Shown piece after piece: positions 4,801 to 36,632 of a stretch of 64,000 nucleotides of DNA. Position numbers and translations under genes: made by a program. The notes beneath the pieces were generated by a model. The model saw nothing but the letters and a program-made list of their open reading frames with translations. It did not search any database and was not told the origin of the DNA. How positions within the stretch are numbered: the first letter of the stretch is position 1; each line of letters opens with the position of its first letter. This DNA is from Candidatus Shapirobacteria bacterium (lineage in GTDB: Bacteria > Patescibacteriota > Microgenomatia > UBA12405), in assembly GCA_037142555.1 (NCBI GenBank), contig JBAXAJ010000001.1, positions 104,423-168,422 of the forward strand, given 5' to 3'.

Positions 4801-5577
4801 GAACCTGGTACTCAGTTAACTCTTCGTACTAAACACACCGGAGGTGTCGTCGGAATCGATGTGACACAAGGTCTACCTCGTGTCCAAGAACTTTTCGAAA
4901 TCAGAATGCCAAAACTTCCATCTCCACTAGCTGAAATTAGTGGAAAGATTAAAGTTAAAGAAACTATTGATGGCTACGAAATCAAATTAACTGGTAAAGA
5001 TGAAAATAACGCTCCAAAAGTTGTTAACTACCTTTTACCAAGCAACGTTGTTCTTCTAGTCGCTGATGGTGATTTAATTGCTCAAGGTACTCAACTTTGT
5101 TCAGGCTCACTTGATGTCCGTGAAATCATGGAAGTTAAGGGAATTAAATCTGCTCAAAAGTATCTTGTTGATTCAATCCAAGGTGTCTACGAATCTCAGG
5201 GAATCACTGTTCATGACAAGCATCTTGAAGTTATCGTTAAAGAAATGAGCGATAAGATTAAGATTGAAGACCCAGGTGACACCTACTTCCTTTATGGTCA
5301 AATTATTACTGCTGCTGTTTTCAACGCTGCTAATAATAAAGCCAAAGCTGAAGGCGGCAAAATCGCTAAAGGTAAAAAAGTCTTATTAGGTCTTATTCAA
5401 TCTGCTTTAACCACTGGTTCTTGGTTGTCTGCTGCTTCATTCCAACAAACAACTAGTGTTTTGACCGAAGCATCCTTGCTTGCTGAGATTGACAACTTGA
5501 TTGGTCTTAAAGAAAATGTTATTATCGGACGATTAATACCTGTCGGTAAAGATCAAAAAATTGAGGTTAAAATATAA
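1834..5577 (+). CDS. rpoC: DNA-directed RNA polymerase subunit beta'
   Basis: ATG at 1834 lies 9 nt downstream of a GAGGAGG Shine-Dalgarno. The N-terminus [39 protein letters not shown]…[11 protein letters not shown] matches RpoC, and the NADFDGD catalytic motif is present. The ORF-track start at 1780 is an upstream overcall. Confidence 0.95.
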
Positions 5578-5999
5578 TGCCAACATTCAATCAACTAATT
5601 AAAAGTGGTCGAAAGACTAGAGTTCTAAAATTAAAAACTGGTGCTTTGCGAAAAAATTTCAACAGCATTAAGAACAGATTAATAGACACTATTAATCCAG
5701 TTAAAAAAGGCGTCGTTATTTCGGTTAAAACTATGACTCCAAAAAAGCCACATTCGGCTTTAAGAAAAATAGCTAAGGTCAAACTTAGTAACCGAAACAT
5801 CGTTACTGCCTACATTCCAGGTATTGGTCACAACTTAGCTGAACACAGCATCGTTAGTGTCCGAGGTGGAAGAGTTAGAGATTTACCAGGTGTTCGCTAC
5901 CGTGTTATTCGTGGTAAGTATGATGCCGGCGCAGTTGCTGGTAGAATGCAATCACGCAGTAAATATGGTGCTAAGAAACCTAGCGCTAAAACCGCCTAA
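5577..5999 (+). CDS. rpsL: 30S ribosomal protein S12
   Basis: The translation shows an S12 signature (…PKKPNSALRK…VRGGRVKDLPGVRY-like). The TAATG overlap with the rpoC stop is typical. Confidence 0.95.
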
Positions 6000-6038
6000 A
6001 TTAAAATTTTAGAAATTAGAAATTAGAAATTTAAATAT

Positions 6039-6521
6039 ATGTCAAGAAAAGGTCCAAGTAAAATTAGAGAAGTCAATCCTGACACTATCTACAACAGCAT
6101 TATAATTACAAAAATTATAAACTCTACAATGAGAGCTGGCAAAAGAGGTCCAGCTGAAAAGCAAGTTTATGATGCTCTAGAAATTCTTAAAAAAGAATAT
6201 CCAGCAGATGATGTAGTAGCTACCCTAGATAGAGCTCTAGAAAATATCAAACCAAAAGTTGAAGTTCGACCTCGCCGAATTGGTGGTGCTGTCTATCAAG
6301 TTCCAACTCCAGTTCGTGGTAATAGACAAAATTCTCTCGCTATTCGTTGGTTATTAACTTCTGCCCGAGCTAAAGCTAATAAGCAATATCATTCTTTCGC
6401 TGAAAAACTAGCTGCTGAACTCAGTTCTGCTATTAAAAGTGAAGGTGCTTCTGTAACTAAGAGAATGGAAATCGAAAGAATGGCTGATGCTAATAAAGCA
6501 TTTGCTCATTTGAGGTGGTAA
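6039..6521 (+). CDS. rpsG: 30S ribosomal protein S7
   Basis: The translation matches S7 (…RAGKRGPAEKQVYDALEIL…RWLLTSARAK…). Confidence 0.95.
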   Translation: MSRKGPSKIREVNPDTIYNSIIITKIINSTMRAGKRGPAEKQVYDALEILKKEYPADDVVATLDRALENIKPKVEVRPRRIGGAVYQVPTPVRGNRQNSLAIRWLLTSARAKANKQYHSFAEKLAAELSSAIKSEGASVTKRMEIERMADANKAFAHLRW

Positions 6522-6530
6522 ACTAAATTA

Positions 6531-7991
6531 ATGTCACTATTTTCTAAACCAAAAGTCGTTTTATGGCCAAAAGCCGAATCTGTTGAAGTCTACATTGACA
6601 GGAAAGAAAACAACAATCTTTCTTTCGATATCAATCTTTGGGAAGAAAAATCCGAAAAAGACCTAGGTCCGCTTTTCTATTATCTAAAACAAAACAAAAT
6701 TGAATCTTGTTCTGTCTTAATTCCAGATGACATTCTTTTAACCAAATCCTTCATCTACGACACCAAAATCACCGAAATCGACAAAAAAGAGGTGATTGGG
6801 CTAGCTGAAAGTTTTGTTCAATTCAAAATTGATCCTGATTCTATTGAATACACTCTTCTTCAAGAAGCCGACAAGACCATAATTCAATCAACTATTTCTC
6901 AAAAAAAGAAAATAGACACTCTAAAACTAAACCTCGCCAAGTTAAATTTAAAAATTAATTCTTTAACTTCTGTTTCTGCTTCAATTTCAAAAGTAATTTC
7001 TAGCCTTAACAGTGGGGAATTCTTCTTAATCTATCCTCTAAATAGTCAAGAATACACTCTTCTTCTATCAAGAAACAACGTCATATATCTAACTGCCAAT
7101 CTTAAAGGGCCATCCCTTGACATTCAAAAAACCATTAACTATTCCACCCTATACTTCGGATCAATCACTAAAAAGATTTATGTTCCAGATATAAAAGAAG
7201 TTGAAATTTTAAGCACTACCGATTTGGAAAAAACCACCTATAATGAAACCCAAATTGCCCAAAGCAGGGGAAAGGCTTCAAACCTACCACTTCCAGTTTT
7301 AGGTGAGTTAATTAGCACAAATTCCACTTATACTGATATAATAAAGCAACCAACTGATATTAGTTTAAAAAAACCTATGGAAAATAAAAAAAATATTCTA
7401 CCTATAGTTGCAGTCTTTATCTTTACTGCAGCCCTAGCCTCAATTATTATTTATATTGTCCTAACCCGCAATAAGACTGAAGATACTCAATCTCCAGCTT
7501 CTGACACTCAATCTCAAATTGAAGAAACTATCCCAACAATTGAACCTGTTGCTACTATAGCTCCAACAATTGCTGAAATTAGTAAAGCTCTCAAACTCCA
7601 AGTTTTAAATGCTACTGAAATTAATGGCCAAGCTGCCACTGTTAAATCAGAATTAGCTGCTCTTGGTTTCACCAGCATCGCTGTTGGTAACAGCAAAGAA
7701 GCTGTGACTTCTAACCAAGTCAAACTTAAAGCTAGCTTATCCACTGCTTCTGCTTATTTCAAAAGCAAAATGGATGCTAATTTCCCAGCTACCTACACAA
7801 GTGATCTTCCAGCTTCCTCTCAATATGACGCTGTCTTCATCATTGGTACTGATTTAAGCACTGGTGCTGCTGCAACTTTAAAAACTACAGTTACTCCAAC
7901 AGTCGCCAAGACTACAGTTACCCCAACAGTCACCAAGACTGCTACTCCAAGTGTAACTAAGGCTCCAACTGCCGTTCCAACTGTAAGATAA
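6531..7991 (+). CDS. Membrane protein with an unknown cytoplasmic N-domain, one TM helix, an extracellular LytR_C-like domain and a Thr/Pro-rich repeat tail
   Basis: Hydrophobic helix ILPIVAVFIFTAALASIIIYIVL. The segment QVLNATEINGQAATVKSELAALGFTSIAVGNSKEA resembles LytR/CpsA/Psr C-terminal domains. The tail carries TVTPTV(A/T)KT repeats. The gene starts 10 nt after rpsG, so it is probably co-transcribed. Confidence 0.6.
   Translation: MSLFSKPKVVLWPKAESVEVYIDRKENNNLSFDINLWEEKSEKDLGPLFYYLKQNKIESCSVLIPDDILLTKSFIYDTKITEIDKKEVIGLAESFVQFKIDPDSIEYTLLQEADKTIIQSTISQKKKIDTLKLNLAKLNLKINSLTSVSASISKVISSLNSGEFFLIYPLNSQEYTLLLSRNNVIYLTANLKGPSLDIQKTINYSTLYFGSITKKIYVPDIKEVEILSTTDLEKTTYNETQIAQSRGKASNLPLPVLGELISTNSTYTDIIKQPTDISLKKPMENKKNILPIVAVFIFTAALASIIIYIVLTRNKTEDTQSPASDTQSQIEETIPTIEPVATIAPTIAEISKALKLQVLNATEINGQAATVKSELAALGFTSIAVGNSKEAVTSNQVKLKASLSTASAYFKSKMDANFPATYTSDLPASSQYDAVFIIGTDLSTGAAATLKTTVTPTVAKTTVTPTVTKTATPSVTKAPTAVPTVR
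7884..7937 (+). repeat. 27-bp perfect/near-perfect tandem repeat (2 units plus a degenerate third) encoding the TVTPTV(A/T)KT tail
   Basis: actacagttac(t/c)ccaacagtc(g/a)ccaag occurs twice, read directly from the sequence. Confidence 0.7.
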
Positions 7992-8009
7992 TCAAAAAGA
8001 ATTTTTAAT

Positions 8010-8036
8010 ACCCCTGCCCCGCAGGGGTATTTTTGT
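8010..8036 (+). terminator. Rho-independent terminator after the LytR_C gene
   Basis: GC hairpin acccctgc-ccc-gcaggggt followed by tatttttgtatt. Confidence 0.6.
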
Positions 8037-8141
8037 ATTAAGCCAAAAAAAATACTCTAAAAAGAAAATGATAGCTTGCGCTAATCAAAATCCATTCAAA
8101 GTATTTTGTCCTACGACCTCAGATTGTTGTTTTTTTTTAAA

Positions 8142-8789
8142 TTAAAGTAAATTGGAGTAATTAGCAATAAAAGTTGCCATAGCCATCTGTGAAACACCAC
8201 AAGAAAATTTAATATCTTTAATTGGGATAAAATCTAATTTTTTATAATTTTTCCCATTAAGCATAATATCTCTTTGTGAATTAACTTCACTTTCTAAAAC
8301 TAAGCAAGAATAAATGTGGATTCCTCCTCCTTCTGAATAAGAGAACCAAGCAGTGTCCATATTAAATGGGCCACCAAGATGAGTAAACCTATCTTTTGGG
8401 ATAATTAAACCACCTTCATCTTCCTCTGAAAGCTCTCTAATAGCAGCATCCATTGGGTCCTCGAAGTTTTCTTTTTTAAAATCTGCATAACCTCTGGGTA
8501 GTTCATCAAAGTATCCATCTGCAGTTGATCTGTACACATCTTTTAAAACACCGATTAGTAAAGCATTTGGTGTTTCCATAAAAGGCACAATTACCGCGGA
8601 AGGAGCAGTGATAGCTATTCTTGTTTGACAGTGTGAGACTTCACCTCTTTCATTTAAAACTAAGCCATACTGAGCCTGGATTCCCATTTTTTCATTTTTT
8701 ATGATTAATCCATCTCTTCCTCCTACAATTTCCCATCTTTTATTTTCTTCAATTTCTTTTGGAATTTTTGTTGTGAACCTTTTATCCAT
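8142..8789 (-). CDS. NUDIX hydrolase
   Basis: Nudix box E-x7-RELSEE-x-GG (FEDPMDAAIRELSEEDEGG). Confidence 0.6.
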   Translation of the reverse strand: MDKRFTTKIPKEIEENKRWEIVGGRDGLIIKNEKMGIQAQYGLVLNERGEVSHCQTRIAITAPSAVIVPFMETPNALLIGVLKDVYRSTADGYFDELPRGYADFKKENFEDPMDAAIRELSEEDEGGLIIPKDRFTHLGGPFNMDTAWFSYSEGGGIHIYSCLVLESEVNSQRDIMLNGKNYKKLDFIPIKDIKFSCGVSQMAMATFIANYSNLL

Positions 8790-9047
8790 TTTTATTACCT
8801 CTTTTCTCCCTATTTGATGAAAGGGAAGTTGGGTCTAAAACATATAGGCCCAGTTTCCCTCTCATCAAATTCAACAAATCTGATTTTTAAAGAACTAAAT
8901 CATAAGTTCTAAGCTTAGCGATTAAGCATATTTCCCATGATTTATCAAAGGTATTATATCCCATAATAGTCATTTTGTCAATTTATAATGTCTTAATTCA
9001 AACTTAAACTTGCCCAAATGCCGTGATTGAATTAAAATAGACTTATT

Positions 9048-10061
9048 ATGAAAATATTAATCACTGGTGGTCTAGGTTTCATTGGTTCAAATTTCATTCG
9101 TTATTGGCTTAAAAAACATCCTAATGATGAGATAGTCAATCTTGACAGCGTCACTTATGCTGCCAATTTCAAAAGCATGATTGAAGTTGAAAGCAACTTA
9201 AATTATAGTTTTGTCCGTGGTGACATTTGTGATGAAAAATTAGTTGATCAAATAATGTCCAAAGGCATTGACATGGTTGTTCATTTTGCTGCCGAATCCC
9301 ATGTTGATCGATCAATTGATGATCCATCTCTTTTTGTCAGGACTAATGTTCTCGGAACCTATGTTCTTCTTAACGCCGCCACTAAATACAACATTAAACG
9401 TTTCCACCACATCTCTACTGATGAAGTTTTTGGTTCAATTGAATTTGGTTCAAACAAGCAATTCAAAGAAACAACTCCTTATGATCCTTCCAGCCCTTAT
9501 TCAGCTTCCAAAGCTTCCTCCGATCATTTAGTTCGATCTTTCTACAAAACTTTTGGACTTCCAGTAACCATCAGCAATTGTTCTAACAACTATGGTCCAT
9601 TCCAACATCCAGAAAAAATGATTCCTCGATCTATCACTAACATCTTAAATGGAAACAAAATCAAAGTTTATGGAAAAGGTCTAAACTTCCGAGATTGGCT
9701 TCATGTTGAAGATCATTGCCGAGCTATCGAAGTTATCTTATTAAAAGGTAAAATAGGTGAAACTTATTGCATTGGTGGTCTCAAAAAAGGCACCAGTAAC
9801 ATCGATCTAGTCAAAGCAATGTTGGGTCTAATGGGCAAGAGTGAGAGTGAAATTGAATATGTTGCCGACAGACCAGCTCATGATAATTATGCCGTTAATT
9901 GGGACAAAATCAATAAAGAACTAGGTTGGGAACCAATCTATGATCTAGATTCTGGTCTCGAACAAACAATCAATTGGTACACTGAAAATAAAGAATGGTA
10001 TGAAGAAACCAAAAAAGAAGCCGAAGAATTCTACATAAAATTAAATAAAGCCAAAAAATAA
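9048..10061 (+). CDS. rmlB: dTDP-glucose 4,6-dehydratase
   Basis: N-terminal Rossmann motif ILITGGLGFIGSNF, catalytic YSASKASSDHL, and a typical RmlB length of 337 aa. Confidence 0.85.
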   Translation: MKILITGGLGFIGSNFIRYWLKKHPNDEIVNLDSVTYAANFKSMIEVESNLNYSFVRGDICDEKLVDQIMSKGIDMVVHFAAESHVDRSIDDPSLFVRTNVLGTYVLLNAATKYNIKRFHHISTDEVFGSIEFGSNKQFKETTPYDPSSPYSASKASSDHLVRSFYKTFGLPVTISNCSNNYGPFQHPEKMIPRSITNILNGNKIKVYGKGLNFRDWLHVEDHCRAIEVILLKGKIGETYCIGGLKKGTSNIDLVKAMLGLMGKSESEIEYVADRPAHDNYAVNWDKINKELGWEPIYDLDSGLEQTINWYTENKEWYEETKKEAEEFYIKLNKAKK

Positions 10062-10591
10062 TGCCAAATTTCATTAAAACCAAAATCGAAGGTCTAGTTA
10101 TAATCGAACCATCAGTTTTTGCTGATGATCGTGGTTTCTTCATGGAAACCTACAACCAAAAAGTTTTTGCCGAAAATGGAATTGATGTCACTTTTGTTCA
10201 AGATAATCATTCCAGATCAAGCAAAGGTGTTTTGCGAGGTCTTCATTTTCAACAAGAGCCTTATGCTCAAGACAAACTAATCAGATGCACCAAGGGTGAA
10301 GTTTTTGATGTCGCTATTGATCTTCGACCAGACTCACCAACTTTTGGCCAATATGAAGGCATAGTTCTTTCAGAAGAAAATAAAAAAATGTTTTTCATTC
10401 CAAAAGGTTTTGCCCATGGCTTTCTAGTTTTAAGTGAAATTGCCGATTTCCAATATAAATGCACTAATCTTTATAATAAAGAATCTGAAGGCGGTCTAAT
10501 GTGGAACGATCCAAAAGTCGCCATCGATTGGCCAAAATTAGACATAAATTATATTTTGTCTGAAAAAGATAATAACTGGCCAAATCTATGA
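10061..10591 (+). CDS. rmlC: dTDP-4-dehydrorhamnose 3,5-epimerase
   Basis: Cupin-like RmlC pattern (…FADDRGFFMETYN…GLHFQ…) and a length of 176 aa. The start overlaps the rmlB stop and the end overlaps the rmlD start (ATGA). Confidence 0.8.
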   Translation: MPNFIKTKIEGLVIIEPSVFADDRGFFMETYNQKVFAENGIDVTFVQDNHSRSSKGVLRGLHFQQEPYAQDKLIRCTKGEVFDVAIDLRPDSPTFGQYEGIVLSEENKKMFFIPKGFAHGFLVLSEIADFQYKCTNLYNKESEGGLMWNDPKVAIDWPKLDINYILSEKDNNWPNL

Positions 10592-11478
10592 ACAAAATAA
10601 TCGGAACAGGTTTAAGTGGTCTAGTTGGCAGTCGCATCGTCGAAATTCTAAAAGATAAATATGAATTTGTCGATTTTTCTCTAGATTCTGGTGTCAACAT
10701 TTTAGACAAAGAAAGTTTAGCTGCTGCTTTTGAAGCTAACAAAGATGCTGTTGCCATTCTTCATTTAGCTGCTTTCACCGACACTAATGCTGCTTGGGAG
10801 CAACTTGGGGATGAGACTGGTCTTTGTTATCAACTCAATGTTGAGGGCACCAGAAACATTTTAAATCTAGCCCAAAAATATAATCAATATTTTATCTATA
10901 TTTCCACTGATTTTGTTTTTGATGGTCAAAAATCAACTCCTTATCTTGAAACTGACGCTCCAACTCCAATTGAATGGTATGGTGAAACTAAATATCTAGG
11001 GGAAAAAGTAATTGAAGATTCAGGCTATCAAAACTTTAATATTTCCAGAATTACCTATCCTTACAGAGCCAAATTTGAACCAAAAGTTGACATCATCAGA
11101 AAAGTCATAGCTAAACTTCAGAATAATGAAGAAGTAAAAATGTTTTCTGATCAAATTTGCACCTACACTTTCATTGATGATATTGCTAAGGCTTTGGGCT
11201 ATTTTTTAGAAAATAAAACAAATGGAATCTATCATCTAGTCGGTTCATCTTCACATTCTCCATATGAAATGTGTCAAAAGATTGCCGAGGCTTTTAATTT
11301 AAACAAAGATTTAATTTCTGCTTCCAGTCTAGAAGACTACATTAAATCTCAACCAGAAGGGAGTCGCCCTTGGCAAAAGACTCTAACCACTTCAAACAAA
11401 AAAATAACTGATCTCGGAATTCACATGTCGACTCTTGAAGAAGGCCTTCAAAAAATCAAAATCCAAATGGGTCTTTAA
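10588..11478 (+). CDS. rmlD: dTDP-4-dehydrorhamnose reductase-like NAD(P)-dependent sugar-nucleotide reductase
   Basis: Gly-rich N-terminus GTGLSGLVG, a Y-x3-K motif (YGETKYLGE), a length of ~296 aa, and an operon position after rmlBC. Confidence 0.6.
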   Translation: MNKIIGTGLSGLVGSRIVEILKDKYEFVDFSLDSGVNILDKESLAAAFEANKDAVAILHLAAFTDTNAAWEQLGDETGLCYQLNVEGTRNILNLAQKYNQYFIYISTDFVFDGQKSTPYLETDAPTPIEWYGETKYLGEKVIEDSGYQNFNISRITYPYRAKFEPKVDIIRKVIAKLQNNEEVKMFSDQICTYTFIDDIAKALGYFLENKTNGIYHLVGSSSHSPYEMCQKIAEAFNLNKDLISASSLEDYIKSQPEGSRPWQKTLTTSNKKITDLGIHMSTLEEGLQKIKIQMGL

Positions 11479-11575
11479 GCTTGATTATTATCCTATATAT
11501 TGTTAGAATGCACAGGTATTGAAGTCAAATCATCATTGCTTTGGTTCAAGAATTTTCGATACGCGCACGTTAAAA

Positions 11576-11597
11576 AACCGTAAAATACAAAAAAAGA
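11576..11597. repeat. Left arm of a ~22-bp imperfect inverted repeat flanking ORF 11619-12032
   Basis: aaccgtaaaatacaaaaaaag; the reverse complement of the right arm is aaccgtaaaatactaaaaaaag. Confidence 0.6.
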
Positions 11598-11618
11598 AAA
11601 AAAAAGGAGCTGGTATGA

Positions 11619-12032
11619 ATGCAACAAAAATTCAACTGTGTAGCAGAATTTAGGTTATGGAAAACAGAAAGGCATTTCAAAAAATTTCTTCACTTCATTG
11701 GATTGAACATTGAATTTCGCGAAAATTGGTATTCCGAAATCGGATACTGTGAAACAAAAAATGTAATAGTATCAAAAAAGGAAGACGAACATCATCATCT
11801 CTCTTACCAAATAAAGAAACTTCAAAGTCTTATTTATGAAGATTTTAAACAGCACCATCCAAAAGGGGTTCAAGAAATAGAGTATTTGCTAAAAATCTAT
11901 CATAAGATAGAAGAGAATATTGCTTTTGCTTTAAGTAATGACATTTCAAAAGAGTTTTCAAAATTTGAAAAATATCTTCATAGAATTCATGAAGTAAATT
12001 TTAAAATTGAATTATTCTTTTCTATTAAATAG
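11619..12032 (+). CDS. Hypothetical protein (137 aa), His/Lys/Glu-rich with no recognisable domain
   Basis: ORF preceded by an AAGGAG Shine-Dalgarno ~10 nt upstream and followed by a perfect hairpin terminator. Confidence 0.45.
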   Translation: MQQKFNCVAEFRLWKTERHFKKFLHFIGLNIEFRENWYSEIGYCETKNVIVSKKEDEHHHLSYQIKKLQSLIYEDFKQHHPKGVQEIEYLLKIYHKIEENIAFALSNDISKEFSKFEKYLHRIHEVNFKIELFFSIK

Positions 12033-12036
12033 AAAT

Positions 12037-12067
12037 GAGAGGAGTTTCTCCTCTCTTTCCTTTTTTT
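12037..12067 (+). terminator. Rho-independent terminator
   Basis: gagaggag-ttt-ctcctctc perfect 8-bp stem followed by a T-rich run. Confidence 0.65.
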
Positions 12068-12068
12068 A

Positions 12069-12090
12069 GTATTTTACGGTTATTTTATTA
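12069..12090. repeat. Right arm of the inverted repeat (pairs with 11576-11597)
   Basis: gtattttacggttattttatt; the core 13 bp GTATTTTACGGTT is the exact reverse complement of AACCGTAAAATAC at 11576-11588. Confidence 0.6.
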
Positions 12091-13261
12091 AATCAGCCAT
12101 TTTCTTCGCTTCTCTAATCGCATAATTAATTCCCCTGTCTTCCGGATAAATTTGAGCAAAATTCAATTGATATAAATTATCTTTAATCTTGTATTTTGGA
12201 GCCTTATAATTTTTACCAACAATATGTTGAGCATTTTTCATTCTAAAAACTTTCTTTTCAATAATTTGTTTTTCATCAAATTCAGGTTTAATTTTCTTTA
12301 AATAATCAAAAAATTCTTTTTCAATTTCTTCATCACTACACTTAAAATATTTATGATCTTGAGTCACATAAGTCCCCAAGTAATAAATATTTTTCTCATT
12401 ATAATTTTTAGTCCCCATCAAATTAGTATGTTCAATCATCACCAAGAAAGGGGAGTTTAGATCATTAATGTTGTGCCAATAATCTTTACTCAGGCTTTGT
12501 TTTGAAGAAAAAACCACATTCACCGCTCCTAAATATTCAATATCTTTAACCGGTCTAGTATCAATCACTACATCAAAAGCCTCCCTGTCAAGGGAGGTGT
12601 CCGCAGGACGGAGGGTTTGTACATTTATTTTTTCTGCCAATTTATCAATAATTTGTCTAAAACCTCCATCCATATATCCCAACACCTCATCACCACTCTC
12701 ATCTTTTGACCCACCTCTAGTGTGAATTCTTGCCCAAAGCCAAGCCATTGAAATTTTTTCATAGTATTGATGGAATTTACCACGTAAAAGTGGTTCCCAA
12801 ATGACTTTATACGCCTCTTTCCCAGCCCATTTCTTCATCCACTCAACTGCTGTTTCATCTTCATACTTTTGCCAATTTTTATCAAGTTTGAGCCATAAAT
12901 AGACTAAACCTAGTCTAAATTTATCCAAAAATCCTAATTCACCAAACTTTAATAAATCAATTGCACCTAAGAATGGATAAAATTTATCATTATAAAAAAG
13001 TGAAATCGAACTTTTATGCCATTTAAGCTTATTTTTTAAACCTAATTCTTCAATTAAATTAATTATTTCACTATCATTTTTAAAAATATGGTGATAAGTC
13101 TTTTCTAAATTTTCACTCTCCATTTCAAAACTCGATAATAAACCCCCAATTTCTTTCTCTTTTTCAAAAACAGTGACTGTATGTCCTTTTTTTGTTAATT
13201 CATATCCAAGGCTCAATCCGCCAATTCCAGCTCCAATTATTGCAATTTTTTTACTATCCAT
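12080..13261 (-). CDS. FAD-dependent oxidoreductase (amine-oxidase/phytoene-desaturase-like fold)
   Basis: N-terminal dinucleotide-binding motif KIAIIGAGIGGLSLGYEL…VFEKEKEIGG. Confidence 0.6.
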   Translation of the reverse strand: MDSKKIAIIGAGIGGLSLGYELTKKGHTVTVFEKEKEIGGLLSSFEMESENLEKTYHHIFKNDSEIINLIEELGLKNKLKWHKSSISLFYNDKFYPFLGAIDLLKFGELGFLDKFRLGLVYLWLKLDKNWQKYEDETAVEWMKKWAGKEAYKVIWEPLLRGKFHQYYEKISMAWLWARIHTRGGSKDESGDEVLGYMDGGFRQIIDKLAEKINVQTLRPADTSLDREAFDVVIDTRPVKDIEYLGAVNVVFSSKQSLSKDYWHNINDLNSPFLVMIEHTNLMGTKNYNEKNIYYLGTYVTQDHKYFKCSDEEIEKEFFDYLKKIKPEFDEKQIIEKKVFRMKNAQHIVGKNYKAPKYKIKDNLYQLNFAQIYPEDRGINYAIREAKKMADLIK

Positions 13262-13295
13262 CCCTTATTATAAAATAGTTATAATAAATTAACTA

Positions 13296-14528
13296 ATGAC
13301 CATTTTTAAATTAATACCATTTTGGGTTTTTATTTTGCTATTTCAACTAGGTGGAAACATCCATTACACTTTTTTGCCAGTTCTTGGTCAAAGACTAACT
13401 GACACTTGGATAGTTGGAATTGTAATTAGTGCTCTTTCTTTTACCCAATTAATGATGGACATTCCCGCTGGATTTTTACTCGATCGTTTTGGTTATCGAA
13501 AAATGATTCGAATCGGAACTGTGATTTTTATTTTGTCTTGTCTAATTTTGGCCTTTGTCCCAGGTTTCCTAGGTTTTGTTCTAGCTTCCATCAGTGCTTC
13601 TTTTGGTTGGCTTTTTTCAATGCCAGGGATTAATGCTTATATTCTTTCTTCAGCCCCAACCAAATCCGCTGAAAAATTTATAGTTTCTCGAGATATTGTC
13701 AGTGCTATTGGTATCGGTTTAGGTTCAATAGCCATCACCTACACAGTCGGGCTAACATCCACCACTGTTGGTTTAATTGCTGCCGCAGTCCTTTCTATGG
13801 CTTTAGTTTTTATTTGGATTTCTCCAAAAGAAACTGCTTCAGTTCACCAAGAAATAAAAGTAAAACACCATCATTTCTATATCAGACGCCATATCTTTAA
13901 AAAATTATTTTCTGCTCTTAATAAACTAAACCCAGCCAGTTGGATGCTTATTTCTCAAGCTCTTTGTTCAAGCATCTTTTATTCAATTGTTTGGTTTGTT
14001 GTTCCAATCATGATTATGGATCCAACCAAAGAAATATTTGGTATCAGTCTTGGTGTTTTTGACTTAGCCATTATATCTCTAGGTTTATTACTTGGTAAGT
14101 TATGTCAAAAAATTAAAGAAAGAAGAGCTATTGTTTTAGGTTTATCTATTTTTGCTTTATCAGCTCTAATAATAGGTAATCAAAATCAATGGTTTTTCCT
14201 ACTTTTTGCTTTTCTAGCCACTTCTGGTGATGAACTATCCAGTGTTTCTCTTTGGTCTTGGTTGGCTAAACTTGATAAAGACCATGGAACAGATGGAGAG
14301 GTTGCCAGTGTTGTCTCCTTCTTTAATGATTTAGGTTGGAGCATCGGTCCAGTCACTGCTGGCATATTATATGGAATCTTTGGTGGTGAATTAACCATAA
14401 CTTTTGCCGCAATTCCAATTTTGATTACCTTTTTAATTTCTGTAATCCTAATTATTAAGTATAATCACACCCTTAATTTTGATAGTTCTAATGTCAGTGC
14501 ACCTAGAAGAATCCGAAGCAAGAGGTAA
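13296..14528 (+). CDS. MFS transporter
   Basis: About 12 predicted hydrophobic helices, an MFS-like D-R-x-G-[YR]-[RK] loop (LLDRFGYRKM), and a length of 410 aa. Confidence 0.65.
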   Translation: MTIFKLIPFWVFILLFQLGGNIHYTFLPVLGQRLTDTWIVGIVISALSFTQLMMDIPAGFLLDRFGYRKMIRIGTVIFILSCLILAFVPGFLGFVLASISASFGWLFSMPGINAYILSSAPTKSAEKFIVSRDIVSAIGIGLGSIAITYTVGLTSTTVGLIAAAVLSMALVFIWISPKETASVHQEIKVKHHHFYIRRHIFKKLFSALNKLNPASWMLISQALCSSIFYSIVWFVVPIMIMDPTKEIFGISLGVFDLAIISLGLLLGKLCQKIKERRAIVLGLSIFALSALIIGNQNQWFFLLFAFLATSGDELSSVSLWSWLAKLDKDHGTDGEVASVVSFFNDLGWSIGPVTAGILYGIFGGELTITFAAIPILITFLISVILIIKYNHTLNFDSSNVSAPRRIRSKR

Positions 14529-14578
14529 GTTAATTAAAAATATTGTAAAATTGATTTGAAATGGTATCATAAGACCAT

Positions 14579-14607
14579 CCGCTGTTGCTCAAATGCAACG
14601 GTTTTTA
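14579..14607 (+). terminator. Rho-independent terminator after the MFS gene
   Basis: ccgctgttgc-tcaaat-gcaacgg hairpin followed by ttttta. Confidence 0.6.
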
Positions 14608-14629
14608 TTATTAAATATAGATATATTAT

Positions 14630-16735
14630 ATGGCTGAACAAATTAAACTTACAAAAAATAGAGATGTAACCATGGATAAAGTCCGTAACATCGGAATTAT
14701 TGCTCACATCGACGGTGGTAAAACTACTACAACTGAAAGAATTTTATTTTATACCGGAAAAATCCACAAAATCGGTTCTGTTGACGAAGGTTCAACCACC
14801 ACCGATTCTATGGCTCAAGAAAAAGAAAGAGGAATCACTATCCAATCTGCTTGTATCACTACTTTTTGGAAAGATTATCGTCTAAACATAATCGACACTC
14901 CTGGGCACGTTGACTTCACTGCTGAAGTTGAAAGATCTCTCCGAGTTCTAGACGGTGCCATCATGATTTTCGATGGTAATGCTGGAGTTCAAGCTCAATC
15001 TGAAACAGTTTGGCGACAAGCTGACAAATATGGTGTCCCTCGAATTGCTTTTGTGAACAAAATGGACAAAATCGGTGCTTCTTTTAAAGGCACTCTTCAA
15101 AGTATTAACGAAAAACTTAAAGCTCCAATCGTTCCAGTCGTCATTCCTGTCGGTGAAGAACATGACCACATTGGTGTCATCGATCTTATGGAAATGAAGA
15201 TGATTGTTTACGATAAAGATGAACAAGGAATGGATTTCACTACTAAAGATGTCACTGATGAATATAAAGATGCTGCAATTAAAGCTCGAGCTGAAATGGT
15301 CGAAAAAATTGCTGGTGAAGATGAAGCTCTAATGGAAAAATTCTTAAATGATGAAGAAATTAGTATCCCAGAATTAAAAGCTGTTCTTCGCAAAGCTACT
15401 ATTGATCGAAAACTTTTCCCAGTTTACTGCGGTGCTGCCTGGAGAAATAAAGGTATCCATCCAGTTCTAGACGGAATCATCAATTATTTGCCATCTCCTC
15501 TAGATTTACCTGCAATTGAAGGTTATGATCCTGAAACTAGTGAAGTTTTGACTAGAAAACCAGAAAGAACTGAACCTCTTTCAGCTCTTCTTTTCAAAGT
15601 TCAATCAGATGCTCATGTCGGAACTCTATCTTATGTTCGTGTCTATTCAGGAACTCTTAAAGCTGGTTCTGAAGTCTATAACACTACCAAGAAAAAAAGC
15701 GAAAGAATAGGACGTTTATTGTTAATGCATGCTGACAAAAGAGAAGGTCTTGAACAAGCTTTTGCTGGAGAAATTGTTGCCTGTATTGGTTTAAAAGAAT
15801 CAACCACTGGTGATACTCTCTGCGATGTAAACAACATTATCTCTCTATCTCCAATTCAATTTTCTGATCCAGTCATTTCTCTATCAGTCGAACCTCTAAC
15901 CACTGATGACCAAGAAAAAATGGGTACAGCTCTTAACCGTCTATCAATTGAAGATCCTACTTTTAAAGTTTCATACAACCACGAAACTGGTCAAACCATC
16001 ATCGCTGGTATGGGAGAACTCTATCTAGAAATCATCGTTGATCGTTTAAAGAGAGAATTCGGTGTCGGTGTCAAAACCGGTGCTCCTCAAGTTGCCTATC
16101 GTGAAGCTATTTCTGCTCCAGCTGATGGTGAAGGTAAATATATTCATCAATCTGGTGGTCATGGTCAATATGGTCATTGTAAAATCAAAATTGAACCTAA
16201 GAATAGAGGAGAAGGTGTTGAATTTGTTAACGCCGTCAAAGGTGGAGCAATTCCATCAAACTTCATTCCTGCTATTGAAAAAGGTGTCCGAGAAACTCTA
16301 ACTAAAGGTATCATTGCTGGCTATCCAGCTACCGACATTAAAGTCACTGTTTATGATGGAACCTACCACGAAGTCGATTCTTCTGAAATGGCTTTCAAAC
16401 TAGCTGGTGCTTATGCTATCAAAGACGCTTTCGTCAAAGCTAACCCACAAGTTCTCGAACCTATCATGAAATTCGAAGTTAACACTCCATCAGAATTTTT
16501 AGGGACAGTAATTGGTGACCTTTCATCTCGCCGTGGTCAAATCAATGGAACCAGTGAAACTGGAACCTTCACTACTATTAATGCTTTCATTCCTCTAGAA
16601 GCAATTCGAGGTTATGCTACCGTTATTAGATCTTTGACTCAAGGACGAGGCGATTTCTACATGGAACCATCTCATTATGATCCAGTTCCTCGTGACGTCC
16701 AAGAAGAATTAACTACAAAAGTCGGTAATAGATAA
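14630..16735 (+). CDS. fusA: Elongation factor G
   Basis: AHIDGGKTTTTERIL and DTPGHVDF G-domain motifs, 701 aa, positioned immediately upstream of tuf. Confidence 0.95.
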   Translation: MAEQIKLTKNRDVTMDKVRNIGIIAHIDGGKTTTTERILFYTGKIHKIGSVDEGSTTTDSMAQEKERGITIQSACITTFWKDYRLNIIDTPGHVDFTAEVERSLRVLDGAIMIFDGNAGVQAQSETVWRQADKYGVPRIAFVNKMDKIGASFKGTLQSINEKLKAPIVPVVIPVGEEHDHIGVIDLMEMKMIVYDKDEQGMDFTTKDVTDEYKDAAIKARAEMVEKIAGEDEALMEKFLNDEEISIPELKAVLRKATIDRKLFPVYCGAAWRNKGIHPVLDGIINYLPSPLDLPAIEGYDPETSEVLTRKPERTEPLSALLFKVQSDAHVGTLSYVRVYSGTLKAGSEVYNTTKKKSERIGRLLLMHADKREGLEQAFAGEIVACIGLKESTTGDTLCDVNNIISLSPIQFSDPVISLSVEPLTTDDQEKMGTALNRLSIEDPTFKVSYNHETGQTIIAGMGELYLEIIVDRLKREFGVGVKTGAPQVAYREAISAPADGEGKYIHQSGGHGQYGHCKIKIEPKNRGEGVEFVNAVKGGAIPSNFIPAIEKGVRETLTKGIIAGYPATDIKVTVYDGTYHEVDSSEMAFKLAGAYAIKDAFVKANPQVLEPIMKFEVNTPSEFLGTVIGDLSSRRGQINGTSETGTFTTINAFIPLEAIRGYATVIRSLTQGRGDFYMEPSHYDPVPRDVQEELTTKVGNR

Positions 16736-32830: not shown

Positions 32831-33796
32831 ATGAAAACATCCTCAATCGCCAAATTTTTAGTAGTAGCTCTAGTTCTAGGAGCTGGTGTGACCTTTGGAA
32901 CTCAAATGGTTCAAAAGAACCAAGAAAACCGAAGTCAAGCATTTGTTCCAGTAGCTGTTTGGGGATTAATATTAGTAGGAGATGCGATAGCTACTTGGAT
33001 TGCCACTCACCCAGATGCAACTCAGGCAATCGGTGAAGCAGCTTCTGAGACAGCGGGAGGAGTAGTGGATCTTTTAGACGATCCTGCAAATCCAGAGAGA
33101 CAAAGAATAATTGATGCAAATGCAGCAGCTTTAAAGTGTCCTGCTGGTTCAAAATATGAATGTCCTCCACTCACTTCACGGGGCGAAGGACCACCATGTG
33201 GTTGCAATAATAATGGTACTTGGACTCCAGTCTTAGTTAAAAAAGATGGTAAGTGTAGTACTAAAAATTATAATACTTGTGAATATGGTGCTGTTTATGA
33301 TAATTTAAAAGACACTACAACACAAGTTCTATGGCAATGTAAGGGTTCTGTTGGTGGCCAAACTGATTTTTGTACTGCGAACAAACCAAAAATCAATGGT
33401 ATTTGTTCTACAACAAAAAATAAATGTACTAAAGGAAAATATTCAGAACTTAAAGACACTGAAGATTATTATTATTGGATGTGTAATGGCACAGCCAATG
33501 GAACATCAGCTAAGTGTCATTCTTCAAAACCTAATAAAGTCAATGGCATTTGTTCAAACACAAAATATTCTTGTTCTAGCGGGACAGTAGTTAATAAAGT
33601 TGACACTACAATTGCCTACAAATGGAGCTGTAAAGGATCTAATGGTGGAAGCCAAACTCCTTGTGATGTAGATAAGCCTGGTGCTTGTGGTAAAACAAAG
33701 AATTCATGTTCTGCTGGTAAGTGGACTGATGTCACTGACACCACAGCTGCTTATAAATGGAAATGTGCAAATATTATTTGTAGTCTTAAAAAATGA
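32831..33796 (+). CDS. Secreted/membrane-anchored cysteine-rich repeat protein, paralog A (321 aa)
   Basis: N-terminal MK..IAKFLVVALVLGAGV.FGTQMVQKNQENRS module shared with B-D. The C-terminus carries repeated C-x5-C-x2-GK(Y/W)-x5-DT-x3-YKWKC modules. The stop overlaps the B start (ATGA). Confidence 0.8.
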   Translation: MKTSSIAKFLVVALVLGAGVTFGTQMVQKNQENRSQAFVPVAVWGLILVGDAIATWIATHPDATQAIGEAASETAGGVVDLLDDPANPERQRIIDANAAALKCPAGSKYECPPLTSRGEGPPCGCNNNGTWTPVLVKKDGKCSTKNYNTCEYGAVYDNLKDTTTQVLWQCKGSVGGQTDFCTANKPKINGICSTTKNKCTKGKYSELKDTEDYYYWMCNGTANGTSAKCHSSKPNKVNGICSNTKYSCSSGTVVNKVDTTIAYKWSCKGSNGGSQTPCDVDKPGACGKTKNSCSAGKWTDVTDTTAAYKWKCANIICSLKK

Positions 33797-34644
33797 AAAA
33801 ATTTAAAATAGCCAAATTTCTTGTAATAGCTTTAGTTCTAGGAGGAGGTCTTTTTTATGGAACCCAAATGGTTCAAAAAAATCAAGAAAACAGAAGTAAT
33901 GCTGCCGGGGGAGCTTTGGTAGCTGAAGGTATCGGAAAATTAGTTGCACCTTACGCAAAAGAGGCAATAAAGGGGTTAAAAGGTAATGACCCAATGCCAA
34001 CAGAAATTTATAAAAGTGGCACTGCTGTATGTGGTTTAAAAAGTTCATGTGAATCTGGGACATATGCACCTTTCTCTAGTGATGATAAGGAAATAAAATG
34101 GACTTGTCAAAAAGGTACTGGACTTAAGCTATTATGCAAGTATATAAAACCTAAAGTTGATGGTCTCTGTTCCACAGATAGAAATAAATGTAGGGCAGGA
34201 ACATTTAAAGAGTCTAAAGACAGTGAAGACCACTATTATTGGCTTTGTGAAGGAATAAATGGTGGATCATCACCATTATGTAATAAACCCAAACTAGTTT
34301 CTCGTGGTGGCACCGACAGACCAATCAAAGGTGTTTGTGGCGAAACAAAAAATTCATGTTCTACTGGTAAGTGGTCTGAAACCACTGACACCACAACTGC
34401 TTATAAATGGAAATGCAATACAACAGTTTGTTTAAAAGACAAAGCTCCTCTATGTGGTGTTTATGCTTTTGATGGTAAACCTATCAAAACAGCTTCTTGT
34501 TATGTTGGTAGTTTAGACAGACCAAACTTCGGACTAGCAATTTATGATGTCACTATTAATGGTAAAAAATATAAAGCATGGTATTGTAAAAACGGTAGTA
34601 GTAAAGTTTCCTGCACAAACAAAACGCCTGTCATAAACTATTAA
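33793..34644 (+). CDS. Cysteine-rich repeat protein, paralog B (283 aa)
   Basis: Shared N-terminal module; the C-terminal ~80 aa are near-identical to C at the DNA level. Confidence 0.8.
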   Translation: MKKFKIAKFLVIALVLGGGLFYGTQMVQKNQENRSNAAGGALVAEGIGKLVAPYAKEAIKGLKGNDPMPTEIYKSGTAVCGLKSSCESGTYAPFSSDDKEIKWTCQKGTGLKLLCKYIKPKVDGLCSTDRNKCRAGTFKESKDSEDHYYWLCEGINGGSSPLCNKPKLVSRGGTDRPIKGVCGETKNSCSTGKWSETTDTTTAYKWKCNTTVCLKDKAPLCGVYAFDGKPIKTASCYVGSLDRPNFGLAIYDVTINGKKYKAWYCKNGSSKVSCTNKTPVINY

Positions 34645-34685
34645 ATTCAAATTTTTTCCAAAAACAAAGCTTATTTACACTAATC

Positions 34686-34748
34686 ATTGACAAAGTTTCA
34701 AATTATATCTATCTTTAAATAACATTTAACAATCTTATTTAAAAATAT
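34686..34748 (+). promoter_or_regulatory. Conserved upstream element (copy 2) with the palindrome at 34715-34729
   Basis: ttgacaaagtttcaaattatatctatctttaaataacatttaacaatcttatttaaaaatat, about 90% identical to copy 3. Confidence 0.55.
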
Positions 34749-35606
34749 ATGAAAAAACTAGGAATAGCCAAATTTTTGGTCATAGCCTTAGTTCTAGGTG
34801 GTGGATTAATTTATGGAACCCAAATGGTTCAAAAGAACCAAGAAAATAGAAGCAAAGCCGCTGAATATGGTAAAACATATAATAATGGAGATGTTATTTG
34901 TGGTGTATCTATACCAGCTGATTGGAGAGGATTAGCAAAATGGAAGCTTCCAAGTGAAATATCTGACGCGGCTGTTGATGAATTTGAAAATGCAGTTTTT
35001 AAATGTAACAAAGATAAATGTACTTTCTCAACTGATTCTATAGGTGACTGGCAATATCTTGAATTTTGTGGCCCAGTTGCAAATACTAGGAAATCTTGCC
35101 AAGAAATAAATGGAGTTAATGCTTCTTGTAAAAATATTGAGGGTGCTTGTGCTTCTAAATTAAATACTTGTCAAAATGGAAAGTTTAAAGATACTGCTGA
35201 CACTCCAACTGAATATAAATGGAATTGTGAAGGAGTTTCAATTTTAGGTGGTACCACAAGTGGTACCACAGCATCTTGTTCTATAAAAAAACAAGTTTGT
35301 GGTGCCAACAGAAATACTTGTAAAATTGGTAAATATTCAAAACTGGATGACACTAACAACCAATATAAATGGAAATGCAATACAACAGTTTGTTTAAAAG
35401 ACAAAGCTCCTCTATGTGGTGTTTATGCTTTTGATGGTAAACCTATCAAAACAGCTTCTTGTTATGTTGGTAGTTTAGACAGACCAAACTTCGGACTAGC
35501 AATTTATGATGTCACTATTAATGGTAAAAAATATAAAGCATGGTATTGTAAAAACGGTAGTAGTAAAGTTTCCTGCACAAACAAAACACCATCTATAAAC
35601 TATTAA
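34749..35606 (+). CDS. Cysteine-rich repeat protein, paralog C (285 aa)
   Basis: Shared N-terminal module, a different middle region, and a C-terminus shared with B. Confidence 0.8.
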   Translation: MKKLGIAKFLVIALVLGGGLIYGTQMVQKNQENRSKAAEYGKTYNNGDVICGVSIPADWRGLAKWKLPSEISDAAVDEFENAVFKCNKDKCTFSTDSIGDWQYLEFCGPVANTRKSCQEINGVNASCKNIEGACASKLNTCQNGKFKDTADTPTEYKWNCEGVSILGGTTSGTTASCSIKKQVCGANRNTCKIGKYSKLDDTNNQYKWKCNTTVCLKDKAPLCGVYAFDGKPIKTASCYVGSLDRPNFGLAIYDVTINGKKYKAWYCKNGSSKVSCTNKTPSINY

Positions 35607-35685
35607 ATTAAAATTTTTTCCAGAAAAAACTGAAATTATTATTCTTTCGAATATTTAACATCAGTCATTGTTTCTTTTGCTAATA

Positions 35686-35747
35686 ATTGACAAAGTTTCA
35701 AATTATATATATCTTTAAATAACATTTAACAAATTTATTTAAAAAAA
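35686..35747 (+). promoter_or_regulatory. Conserved upstream element (copy 3) with the palindrome at 35715-35729; an A8 tract directly abuts the ATG
   Basis: ttgacaaagtttcaaattatatatatctttaaataacatttaacaaatttatttaaaaaaaatg. Confidence 0.55.
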
Positions 35748-36632
35748 ATGAAAAAATTAGGAATAGCAAAATTTTTAGTAATGGCTCTAGTTCTAGGCGG
35801 TGGATTAATTTATGGAACTCAAATGGTTCAAAAGAACCAAGAGAACAGAAGTAAAGCCGCTAATGAAATTACAACACAAGATGGACCCTGTGGTTCTACT
35901 GCTAATGTATGTCTTGATGGGAGACCTGCAACTAACATAACTTCAGACGCTGTTAAGAACAACTGGAAATGCCCATATAATGGAGGATTCGCTAGTTGTG
36001 TATTAATTAAACCAGGTGAATGTGGCACTAAAGCATATGGTGATTGTGTTGCTGGAAAATATCAAAATATAAATGGCACTAACACTCAATGGAAATGTGC
36101 TAATGTTACTTGCTCTATCCCAAAAACTGCAATACCAAAAGGACCTTGCGGTTCTACTGCTAATGTATGTCTTAATGGTGGATCTGCAACCAACATAACT
36201 TCAGATGCTGTTAAGAGCAACTGGAAATGCCCATATAATGGAGGATTAGCTAGTTGTATTTTAATTAAACCAGGTAAATGTGGTACTAAGTCGTATGGTG
36301 ATTGTATTAGTGGAACATATCAAAATATAAATGGCACTAACACTCAATGGAAATGTGCTAATGTTACTTGCTCTATGCCAAAAGTAGTTACAGCACCAAA
36401 AGGACCTTGTAGTACTACTGCCAATAAATGTGTTGATGGGAGACCTGCAACCAACATAACTTCAGATGCTGTTAAGAACAACTGGAAATGCCCATATAAT
36501 GGAGGATTCGCTAGTTGTATTTTAATTAAACCAGGCGAATGTGGCATTAAATATGGTAATTGTATTAGTGGAAAATTTGAAAAAATAAACGACATTCAGT
36601 GGAAATGTGCTAATGTTACTTGCTCTCTTTAA
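35748..36632 (+). CDS. Cysteine-rich repeat protein, paralog D (294 aa), built from three ~87-aa tandem repeats
   Basis: Shared N-terminal module. PKGPCGSTANVC…NWKCPYNGG…QWKCANVTCS is repeated three times with ~90% DNA identity. Confidence 0.8.
   Translation: MKKLGIAKFLVMALVLGGGLIYGTQMVQKNQENRSKAANEITTQDGPCGSTANVCLDGRPATNITSDAVKNNWKCPYNGGFASCVLIKPGECGTKAYGDCVAGKYQNINGTNTQWKCANVTCSIPKTAIPKGPCGSTANVCLNGGSATNITSDAVKSNWKCPYNGGLASCILIKPGKCGTKSYGDCISGTYQNINGTNTQWKCANVTCSMPKVVTAPKGPCSTTANKCVDGRPATNITSDAVKNNWKCPYNGGFASCILIKPGECGIKYGNCISGKFEKINDIQWKCANVTCSL
35880..36632 (+). repeat. Three tandem ~260-bp repeats inside paralog D
   Basis: 35883-36140, 36141-36407 and 36408-36629 align base by base with few substitutions. 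Confidence 0.8.

Follow-up and report, generated by a model that had tools for sequence, protein, structure and literature searches.

A conserved, co-varying inverted repeat around an orphan gene in Candidatus Shapirobacteria

Described systems and the ORF137 locus

Pairing between the 5′ and 3′ untranslated regions (UTRs) of one message has been described for a few bacterial mRNAs. In the hbs mRNA of B. subtilis, a 14-bp helix between the two UTRs modulates the access of RNase Y and RNase J, and the 3′ element of this helix is located upstream of the terminator (Braun, Durand and Condon 2017, PMC5737220). Here we describe an inverted repeat in a 64-kb stretch of DNA from a Candidatus Shapirobacteria bacterium (contig JBAXAJ010000001.1, positions 104,423 to 168,422; termed the window), the arms of which enclose ORF137, an open reading frame (ORF) of 137 aa present between rmlD and a convergent gene for a FAD-dependent oxidoreductase. 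The most apt description of this element is a conserved, co-varying bracket that surrounds an orphan gene. The ORF137 locus resembles hbs in having a small gene with a structured leader, in which a segment upstream of the Shine-Dalgarno (SD) sequence is predicted to pair beside a 3′ hairpin.

Two other transcripts invite comparison. In S. aureus icaR, pairing of the 3′ UTR with the SD sequence blocks initiation and makes a substrate for RNase III (Ruiz de los Mozos et al. 2013, PMC3868564). The likeness lies in a pyrimidine-rich 3′ element complementary to the SD region, here CUCCUCUC against AAAGGAG. The anti-SD motif of icaR is located in a 3′ UTR of ∼390 nt, whereas the SD-complementary part of the present locus is the 3′ half of a hairpin and, unlike in icaR, the co-varying core lies outside the SD sequence. 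The hok mRNA of a type I toxin-antitoxin system forms the tac/fbi fold-back stem (PMC9841398), in which base pairing between the two ends of the transcript closes the whole message, as proposed below for ORF137. Both loci also have the character of a selfish or accessory module, with relatives of the window genome holding a Phd/ParE toxin-antitoxin pair in the slot occupied by ORF137. The hok gene encodes a hydrophobic peptide of ∼50 aa and is accompanied by the antisense Sok RNA and the mok leader ORF, while the ORF137 product is a hydrophilic protein of 137 aa and, unlike for hok, an antisense RNA gene was not evident at the ORF137 locus.

Short inverted repeats also delimit DNA elements. 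Invertons (for example, PMC11602134, PMC11892184) share with this locus repeats of tens of base pairs around a few hundred base pairs of DNA beside cell-surface polysaccharide genes. Classical invertons have a promoter inside the repeats, a recombinase and both orientations, whereas in the present locus the promoter-like site is outside, no recombinase was found in the window and one orientation was observed. Miniature inverted-repeat transposable elements (MITEs; Correia/NEMIS) are likewise short and AT-rich, and transcripts of their terminal inverted repeats can fold into stems that RNase III cleaves, but they are multi-copy, are flanked by target-site duplications and usually carry no selected protein, none of which holds here.

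The inverted repeat and the co-variation of its arms

The sequence AACCGTAAAATAC at positions 11576-11588 was found, by direct reading, to recur as an exact reverse complement at 12069-12081, and the flanking A/T runs extend the match to 22 of 24 positions. An initial annotation of the window had reported both the 13-bp core and an extension to ∼22 bp, and its account of the enclosed parts, namely, an SD sequence, a 137-aa ORF without a recognised family and a hairpin, was equally accurate. A repeat search extended the pair to 38 nt with 82% complementarity (31/38; 11572-11609 and 12048-12085). With ungapped scoring of +1/−2, the best segment was 24 nt in length (11572-11595 and 12062-12085), with a score of 18, the highest for any inverted repeat in the window; the runners-up scored 13 at spacings of ≤800 nt and 15 at spacings of ≤5 kb. 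In block-wise Markov simulations of the window (n = 60), the best score had a mean of 13.9 and a maximum of 17, with 0/60 reaching 18. The 13-mer occurs twice in the window when ≤2 mismatches are allowed and is not significant by itself, as ∼2 near-matches are expected by chance. The repeat is non-random, the significance being carried by the extension and the conservation rather than by the 13-mer, and the probability of a chance origin is negligible. The outer part of the 38-nt match is of low complexity, consisting of an A run and GGAG opposite CTCC and a T run, and could be just a translation-initiation region opposite a terminator tail. The specific part is a 17-nt core, AAA(A/T)AACCGTAAAATAC. 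The arms are 466 nt apart (11595 to 12062) and bracket a segment of 514 bp.

Relatives were represented by ∼90 loci encoding homologues of the oxidoreductase, in each of which rmlD, the oxidoreductase gene and the gene for a major facilitator superfamily (MFS) transporter were located. A 138-aa ORF (ORF138) in the slot, together with a shared MFS gene, was found in one other clade only, termed the L011 clade (L011, L012, L032 and L097-L102, with L096 as a 94%-identical variant), whose RmlD, oxidoreductase and MFS proteins are 86%, 73% and 73% identical, respectively, to those of the window. In this clade, an inverted repeat of 22 nt (91%) occupies the same sites as in the window: one arm immediately precedes the SD sequence and the other abuts the oxidoreductase stop codon. 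The arms are separated by 461 nt, and their core sequence differs from that of the window. The left arm reads AAAAAACCGTAAAATAC in the window and TAAAATCCATAAAAAAT in L011, while the reverse complement of the right arm reads AAATAACCGTAAAATAC in the window and TAAAATCCATAAAAATT in L011. Within each genome the two arms matched at 16/17 positions; between genomes, the left arms matched at 12/17 and the right arms at 10/17.

When the arms were aligned as a 24-pair helix, 93.8% of cells were in standard pairs and 3 cells were unpaired. Changes on both sides were detected for 5 of the 24 pairs, and a further two pairs in L011 had changed from A-U to G-U on the + strand, positions that are mismatches at the DNA level. 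In a control with the 3′ partner slid by 1 to 3 columns, 44 to 63% of cells paired, with 0 to 1 double changes. Duplex energies were −24.2 and −22.1 kcal/mol for the cognate arms and −14.2 and −11.3 kcal/mol for the cross-genome combinations. The alignments indicate that complementarity, and not sequence, has been conserved. The Logan contig of L096 (SRR22315509) ends inside the right arm (L096 1500-1540), which could reflect a branching assembly graph or poor coverage; both arms are spanned in all of the other assemblies.

A second line of evidence concerned the leader. Between L011 and L096, rmlD and ORF138 each differ at 6.2% of nucleotides. The 115 nt from the rmlD stop codon to the SD sequence, containing the promoter, the leader and the left arm, exhibited 0 substitutions and a single indel in an A run; the probability of a substitution-free leader is 0.938^115, or about 6e-4. 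The leader, including the left arm, thus appears to be strongly constrained. The same two genomes do differ in homopolymer lengths in the spacer that separates the right arm from the hairpin.

The bracketed gene, ORF137 (11619-12032, + strand; MEI8067437.1, locus tag WCG91_00600, from a Candidatus Shapirobacteria metagenome-assembled genome), matched only itself in a word-indexed search of 5.8 billion proteins, and an exhaustive phmmer search of 1.84 billion representatives produced only low-complexity, multi-stretch matches to long proteins. No family was assigned in Pfam, PHROG or PADLOC, and an AlphaFold2 model from a 3-sequence alignment was unusable (predicted local distance difference test [pLDDT] score of 42). 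A profile of ORF137 and ORF138 detected two protein clusters and no others. ORF138 of L011 is ∼20% identical to ORF137 in a full-length colinear alignment (pairwise E = 8e-4), and ORF137 is a fast-evolving orphan protein gene. Between L011 and L096, ORF138 had a synonymous divergence (dS) of 0.20, a nonsynonymous divergence (dN) of 0.037 and a ratio of the two (omega) of 0.18, as compared to a dS of 0.31 and an omega of 0.04 for rmlD. The omega of 0.18 argues that ORF138 is a real protein-coding gene kept by purifying selection. As the ORFs belong to one profile family and as the window and L011 can be aligned over the promoter block and some of the leader, the cassette is orthologous and was already carried by the ancestor that the window genome shares with the L011 clade.

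ORF137 has a GC content of 27% and a GC content at third codon positions (GC3) of 0.24, equal to that of its neighbours, and a recent foreign origin was ruled out by this native-like GC3. An HUH/IS200-type transposase was rejected because ORF138 does not share the HHH found at residues 58-60 of ORF137. An extra ATG is present 4 nt upstream of the ORF137 start and opens a 12-codon frame, MNATKIQLCSRI (11615-11653), which overlaps the start of ORF137 and is not conserved in L011.

A proposed long-range RNA helix and competing explanations

RNA helices are classically recognised by compensatory change, and the two arms are both located in untranslated sequence; we therefore tentatively favour, as a real possibility, the reading that the arms are kept complementary as a conserved long-range 5′/3′ RNA helix closing the ORF137 message. 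A transcript running from the leader past the 3′ hairpin would carry both arms. The leader segment 11572-11596, just upstream of the SD sequence, would then pair with 12060-12085, just beyond the hairpin, to produce an A-U-rich helix of ∼24 bp and about −24 kcal/mol that closes the whole ORF. Such a helix would control the access of ribonucleases (RNase III and RNase Y) and of ribosomes to the leader and the SD sequence, and mRNA stability and translation would be set by this control. We infer that both arms reach one RNA via read-through of the terminator-like hairpin, and likewise the downstream effect.

The anatomy of the locus is compatible with a helix of this type. A self-contained gene, with a promoter-like site, leader, SD sequence, ORF137 and hairpin, is present within and around the arms. 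The left arm (11572-11595, with the exact core at 11576-11588; + strand) is part of the predicted 5′ UTR and precedes the SD sequence by 10 nt; a purine-rich extension of the arm to 11609 takes in this sequence. The SD sequence, AGGAG (11605-11609, + strand), is 9 nt before the ATG at 11619; its L011 counterpart is a GGAG located 8 nt ahead of a TTG start. Downstream of ORF137, the hairpin GAGAGGAG-TTT-CTCCTCTC (12037-12055) has a terminator-like score on both strands, with energies of −14.9 kcal/mol on the + strand and −16.5 kcal/mol on the − strand, and on direct reading of the + strand is followed by the T-rich run TTTCCTTTTTTT (12056-12067). The right arm (12062-12085, with the exact core at 12069-12081; + strand) has an extension starting at 12048, within the 3′ half of the hairpin, and in this extension CUCCUCUC (12048-12055) is opposite AAAGGAG (11603-11609) in the SD region. 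The right arm overlaps the oxidoreductase stop codon (12080-12082). The overlap with this gene noted in the initial annotation is thus correct, but it does not involve the last codons, as the core covers 2 nt of the stop codon and the extension only the last codon. Minimum-free-energy (MFE) folds of either strand contained the long-range helix alongside the local hairpin (in a 574-nt transcript on the + strand), and a gene for RNase Y is present in the window.

Several points weigh against an RNA helix. The core of the right arm is 3′ of a hairpin and U tract that score as an intrinsic terminator, and hence would be present only in transcripts that read through. In hbs, the helix comprises 14 bp and its 3′ element precedes the terminator, whereas the helix here would be ∼24 bp with its 3′ core beyond the hairpin and is a prediction. 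The observed covariation values were reached by 14/500 shuffles, the covariation derives from two independent lineages (three with the truncated L096), such that the statistics are thin, and 3 of the 5 double changes are A-T to T-A, which gene conversion at the DNA level could produce equally well. Matches to the promoter consensus occur in the region at the rate expected by chance. The energies for the window genome, −26.9 kcal/mol on the − strand versus −24.2 kcal/mol on the + strand, do not determine the strand, and the strand hints conflict, with the G-U pairs of L011 favouring the + strand and the energy in the window genome slightly favouring the − strand. On the − strand, the right arm would be located between the oxidoreductase stop codon and the hairpin, and its partner 450 nt past the hairpin.

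An unlikely explanation, but the one that survives best among the alternatives, is that the arms are DNA inversion sites and that the 0.5-kb segment is flipped, as in an inverton, by a recombinase or RecA. In the flipped state, the rmlD-side promoter would read straight into the hairpin, while the SD sequence and ORF137 would be placed directly behind the oxidoreductase stop codon, joining the transcription unit of that gene. Arm identity would be kept by recombination between the arms, and concerted change of the arms is expected where strand exchange requires identity. The segment is flanked by inverted repeats, has inverton-like dimensions (514 bp with arms of 24 bp) and has a promoter-like site outside the repeat. 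Moreover, neighbouring cell-surface sugar genes are a typical setting of invertons in gut bacteria (PMC11892184), a RecA gene is present in the window, and inversion is free of the problem posed by the position of the terminator. The observed distribution is less favourable, however, as a single orientation was present in 10/10 assemblies spanning the cassette, representing three sequence variants (the window, L001, L011, L012, L097, L099, L100, L101, L102 and the left side of L096, all at the assembly level). A site-specific recombinase was detected in 0 of the 31 window ORFs scanned, and the arms do not have the internal dyad symmetry of Hin- or Cre-type sites. Inversion also leaves two observations unexplained, namely, the invariance of the leader beyond the arm and the sites at which G-U pairs can form in RNA while DNA would have mismatches.

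We regard as improbable a non-functional relic, in which the terminator flank underwent an ancestral inverted duplication and the arms were kept alike by gene conversion or template switching. The reverse complement of the T tract and CTCC stem would in that case have become the A-rich leader and GGAG. The low complexity of the outer repeat, with an A run against a T run and GGAG against CTCC, and the variation in homopolymer length of the arm-proximal spacer between L011 and L096 are consistent with a relic, but the 17-nt core is matched at 16/17 positions in both lineages despite turnover at 5 positions, and the leader, including the left arm, shows apparent strong constraint. A repeat of 17 to 24 bp is, in addition, at or below the usual minimum for efficient RecA-dependent exchange, which counts against a relic.

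Quite improbable, in our estimation, is that the arms do not pair with each other but are twin recognition sites for a trans-acting DNA- or RNA-binding protein, possibly ORF137 itself, or for a small RNA. A motif of the same sense, AACCGUAAAAUAC, would be present in the 5′ UTR of ORF137 and in the 3′ UTR of the oxidoreductase gene, between its stop codon and the hairpin. Both arms are located in predicted untranslated regions of two convergent genes, the fast-evolving ORF137/138 protein (∼20% identity) could co-evolve with its sites, and read-through of the hairpin is not needed. Such a factor would, however, have to alter its specificity at 5/17 positions as both sites changed, and direct pairing is the more parsimonious account. 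No third copy of the motif was found in the 64 kb, the left arm is ∼63-86 nt downstream of the −10 hexamer rather than over the promoter, neither site has dyad symmetry, and ORF137 has no recognisable nucleic-acid-binding domain, the structural model (pLDDT 42) being unusable. A pair of operator sites, as suggested in the initial annotation, fits poorly for related reasons: the left arm starts 63 nt past the −10 hexamer, the right arm is beyond the gene and neither arm has an internal palindrome.

The initial annotation had preferred a small mobile cassette, MITE-like or integron-like, with the arms as terminal inverted repeats, and this proposal was not sustained; we consider it highly improbable. 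A length of ∼0.5 kb and the AT-richness are MITE-like, most relatives lack the locus, and its slot has a high gene turnover, with cargo that includes the Phd/ParE pair in L024 and L019. The lineage-specific DNA, however, starts at the rmlD stop codon (11479), 93 nt to the left of the left arm, indicating that the arms do not delimit an insertion, and no target-site duplication was found (flanks of CACGTT/TATTAA in the window and GATCCT/TTTTAT in L011). Further copies of the arms, a search for which had been proposed as a check, were detected neither in the window (≤2 mismatches) nor in 103 fetched loci, and the single match in a viral contig was one copy inside a coding ORF, consistent with chance. 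The ORF137/138 family is confined to this one locus. The nearest approaches to an attC core (GTTRRRY/RYYYAAC), GTTAAAA at 11568-11574 and GTTATTT at 12078-12084, violate the consensus, the repeat consists of two distant arms rather than the compact 3′ palindrome of attC, and the cassette has its own promoter-like site, unlike integron cassettes. Integrases, transposases and recombinases were found in 0 of the 31 window ORFs scanned, the other cargo of the slot has no bracket repeat and the GC3 is native-like. The ends of an immobilised element would be expected to decay independently and not to co-vary. The annotation had named, as evidence that would count against a cassette, a unique repeat and relatives carrying the ORF without flanking repeats; the repeat was indeed unique, but the relatives with the ORF had the repeats, in co-varied form. 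Readings of the locus as a diversity-generating retroelement, a clustered regularly interspaced short palindromic repeat (CRISPR) array or an attC site were rejected, there being no matching anatomy in the sequence. A permissive Rfam search of 11400-12200 detected only sub-threshold chance matches.

Genomic setting and significance

The slot is bordered on the left by rmlD (10588-11478, + strand), encoding a dTDP-4-dehydrorhamnose reductase identified by Pfam, and on the right by the oxidoreductase gene (12080-13261, − strand), identified by Pfam and by homologues as amine-oxidase/protoporphyrinogen-oxidase-like. A scan with the sigma-70 consensus predicted a promoter-like site, TTGATT-17 nt-TAGAAT with a TG before the −10 hexamer (11481-11509, + strand), which lies outside the bracket, before the left arm. 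In L011, this site retains the block CCTATATATTGT and a TATAAT −10 hexamer. The predicted leader between the promoter-like site and the SD sequence is ∼100 nt in length and contains, close to where the ORF137 transcript is predicted to begin, a stem-loop detected by MFE folding (11519-11549, + strand). Three pairs of this stem-loop have changed on both sides in an RNAalifold analysis of the window, L011 and L096, which is weak evidence; the stem-loop may be a 5′ stabilising hairpin.

In the window, the gene order is rpoC, rpsL, rpsG, LytR_C, a 215-aa ORF (− strand), rmlB, rmlC, rmlD, ORF137, the oxidoreductase gene (− strand), the MFS gene, fusA and tuf. The cassette therefore lies, as the initial annotation had stated, in an insert within the str operon (S12, S7, insert, EF-G, EF-Tu). 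Interruption of this operon by LytR_C, rmlBCD and a convergent oxidoreductase gene (window 5577-16735) was also observed in the Shapirobacteria contigs L002, L003, L010 and L015. The oxidoreductases of contigs sharing the insert are only 52 to 75% identical and the insert is nevertheless conserved, suggesting that the insert is old and that only the rmlD/oxidoreductase junction is variable.

The same annotation had proposed looking for relatives in which rmlD is next to the oxidoreductase gene without the 0.5 kb, and this arrangement was found in many contigs, the two genes adjoining or overlapping convergently in L002, L003, L010, L021, L022, L027, L028, L033, L035-L038 and others. The 0.6 kb present in the window is lineage-specific accessory DNA in a hypervariable slot, a hot spot of gene turnover. 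This hot spot (window 11479-12079) was seen in the Shapirobacteria-like contigs L010, L013, L015, L019, L023, L024, L031, L034, L039, L050, L074 and L081. Cargo in the slot included a PhdYefM/ParE toxin-antitoxin pair (L024 and L019), proteins of 221 to 577 aa that begin with MENSGE (variant MEGNSE/MEGNGE) right at the rmlD stop codon, a HAD-like hydrolase and other ORFs. No convincing bracket repeat was found around other cargo of the slot in relatives, the score-14 repeat pairs of L039 and L081 being within flanking coding regions. The distribution of the MFS transporter gene between the oxidoreductase gene and fusA (window 13296-14528; L011 2708-3940) coincides with that of the ORF137/138 cassette, both being restricted to the window genome and the L011 clade; fusA adjoins the oxidoreductase gene in other relatives.

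Some further features of the window were recorded. The 215-aa ORF of the str-operon insert (8142-8789, − strand) and four consecutive ORFs at 32831-36632 (321, 283, 285 and 294 aa) were without a Pfam match at E ≤ 1e-4. At 10530-10544 (in rmlC) and 13539-13553 (in the MFS gene), both of which are coding, are the arms of an exact 15-nt inverted repeat, GGCCAAAATTAGACA/TGTCTAATTTTGGCC; they are 3 kb apart around rmlD, ORF137 and the oxidoreductase gene, and a repeat at such a spacing is probably due to chance.

The bracket is probably a variant of the known class of long-range 5′/3′-UTR interactions, in a group of organisms for which no such element has been described. It is distinctly unlikely, in our view, that the locus represents an undescribed regulatory design, either a helix that pairs only on read-through transcripts or a gene-flipping switch for ORF137. 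If the helix version were true, the placement of the 3′ strand past a terminator-like hairpin would link termination efficiency to mRNA processing or translation. If the switch version were true, flipping would transfer ORF137 from the promoter on the rml side to the operon of the convergent oxidoreductase, and back. Whichever version held, the element would be the first of its kind reported from a genome of the candidate phyla radiation (CPR)/Patescibacteria.

The practical weight of the finding is limited, as the cassette is present in two lineages only and encodes an orphan protein. Gene regulation in CPR/Patescibacteria is almost unexplored, these organisms being known mainly from metagenomes, and the locus provides a compact candidate cis-element with evolutionary support in a turnover hot spot of the str/ribosomal-protein supercluster. 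Should the arms recombine, the locus would be an example of phase variation of an accessory gene in a CPR bacterium. Should they pair in RNA, the locus would provide a clear comparative case beside the few bacterial 5′/3′-UTR interactions and evidence for the occurrence of such interactions in reduced genomes.

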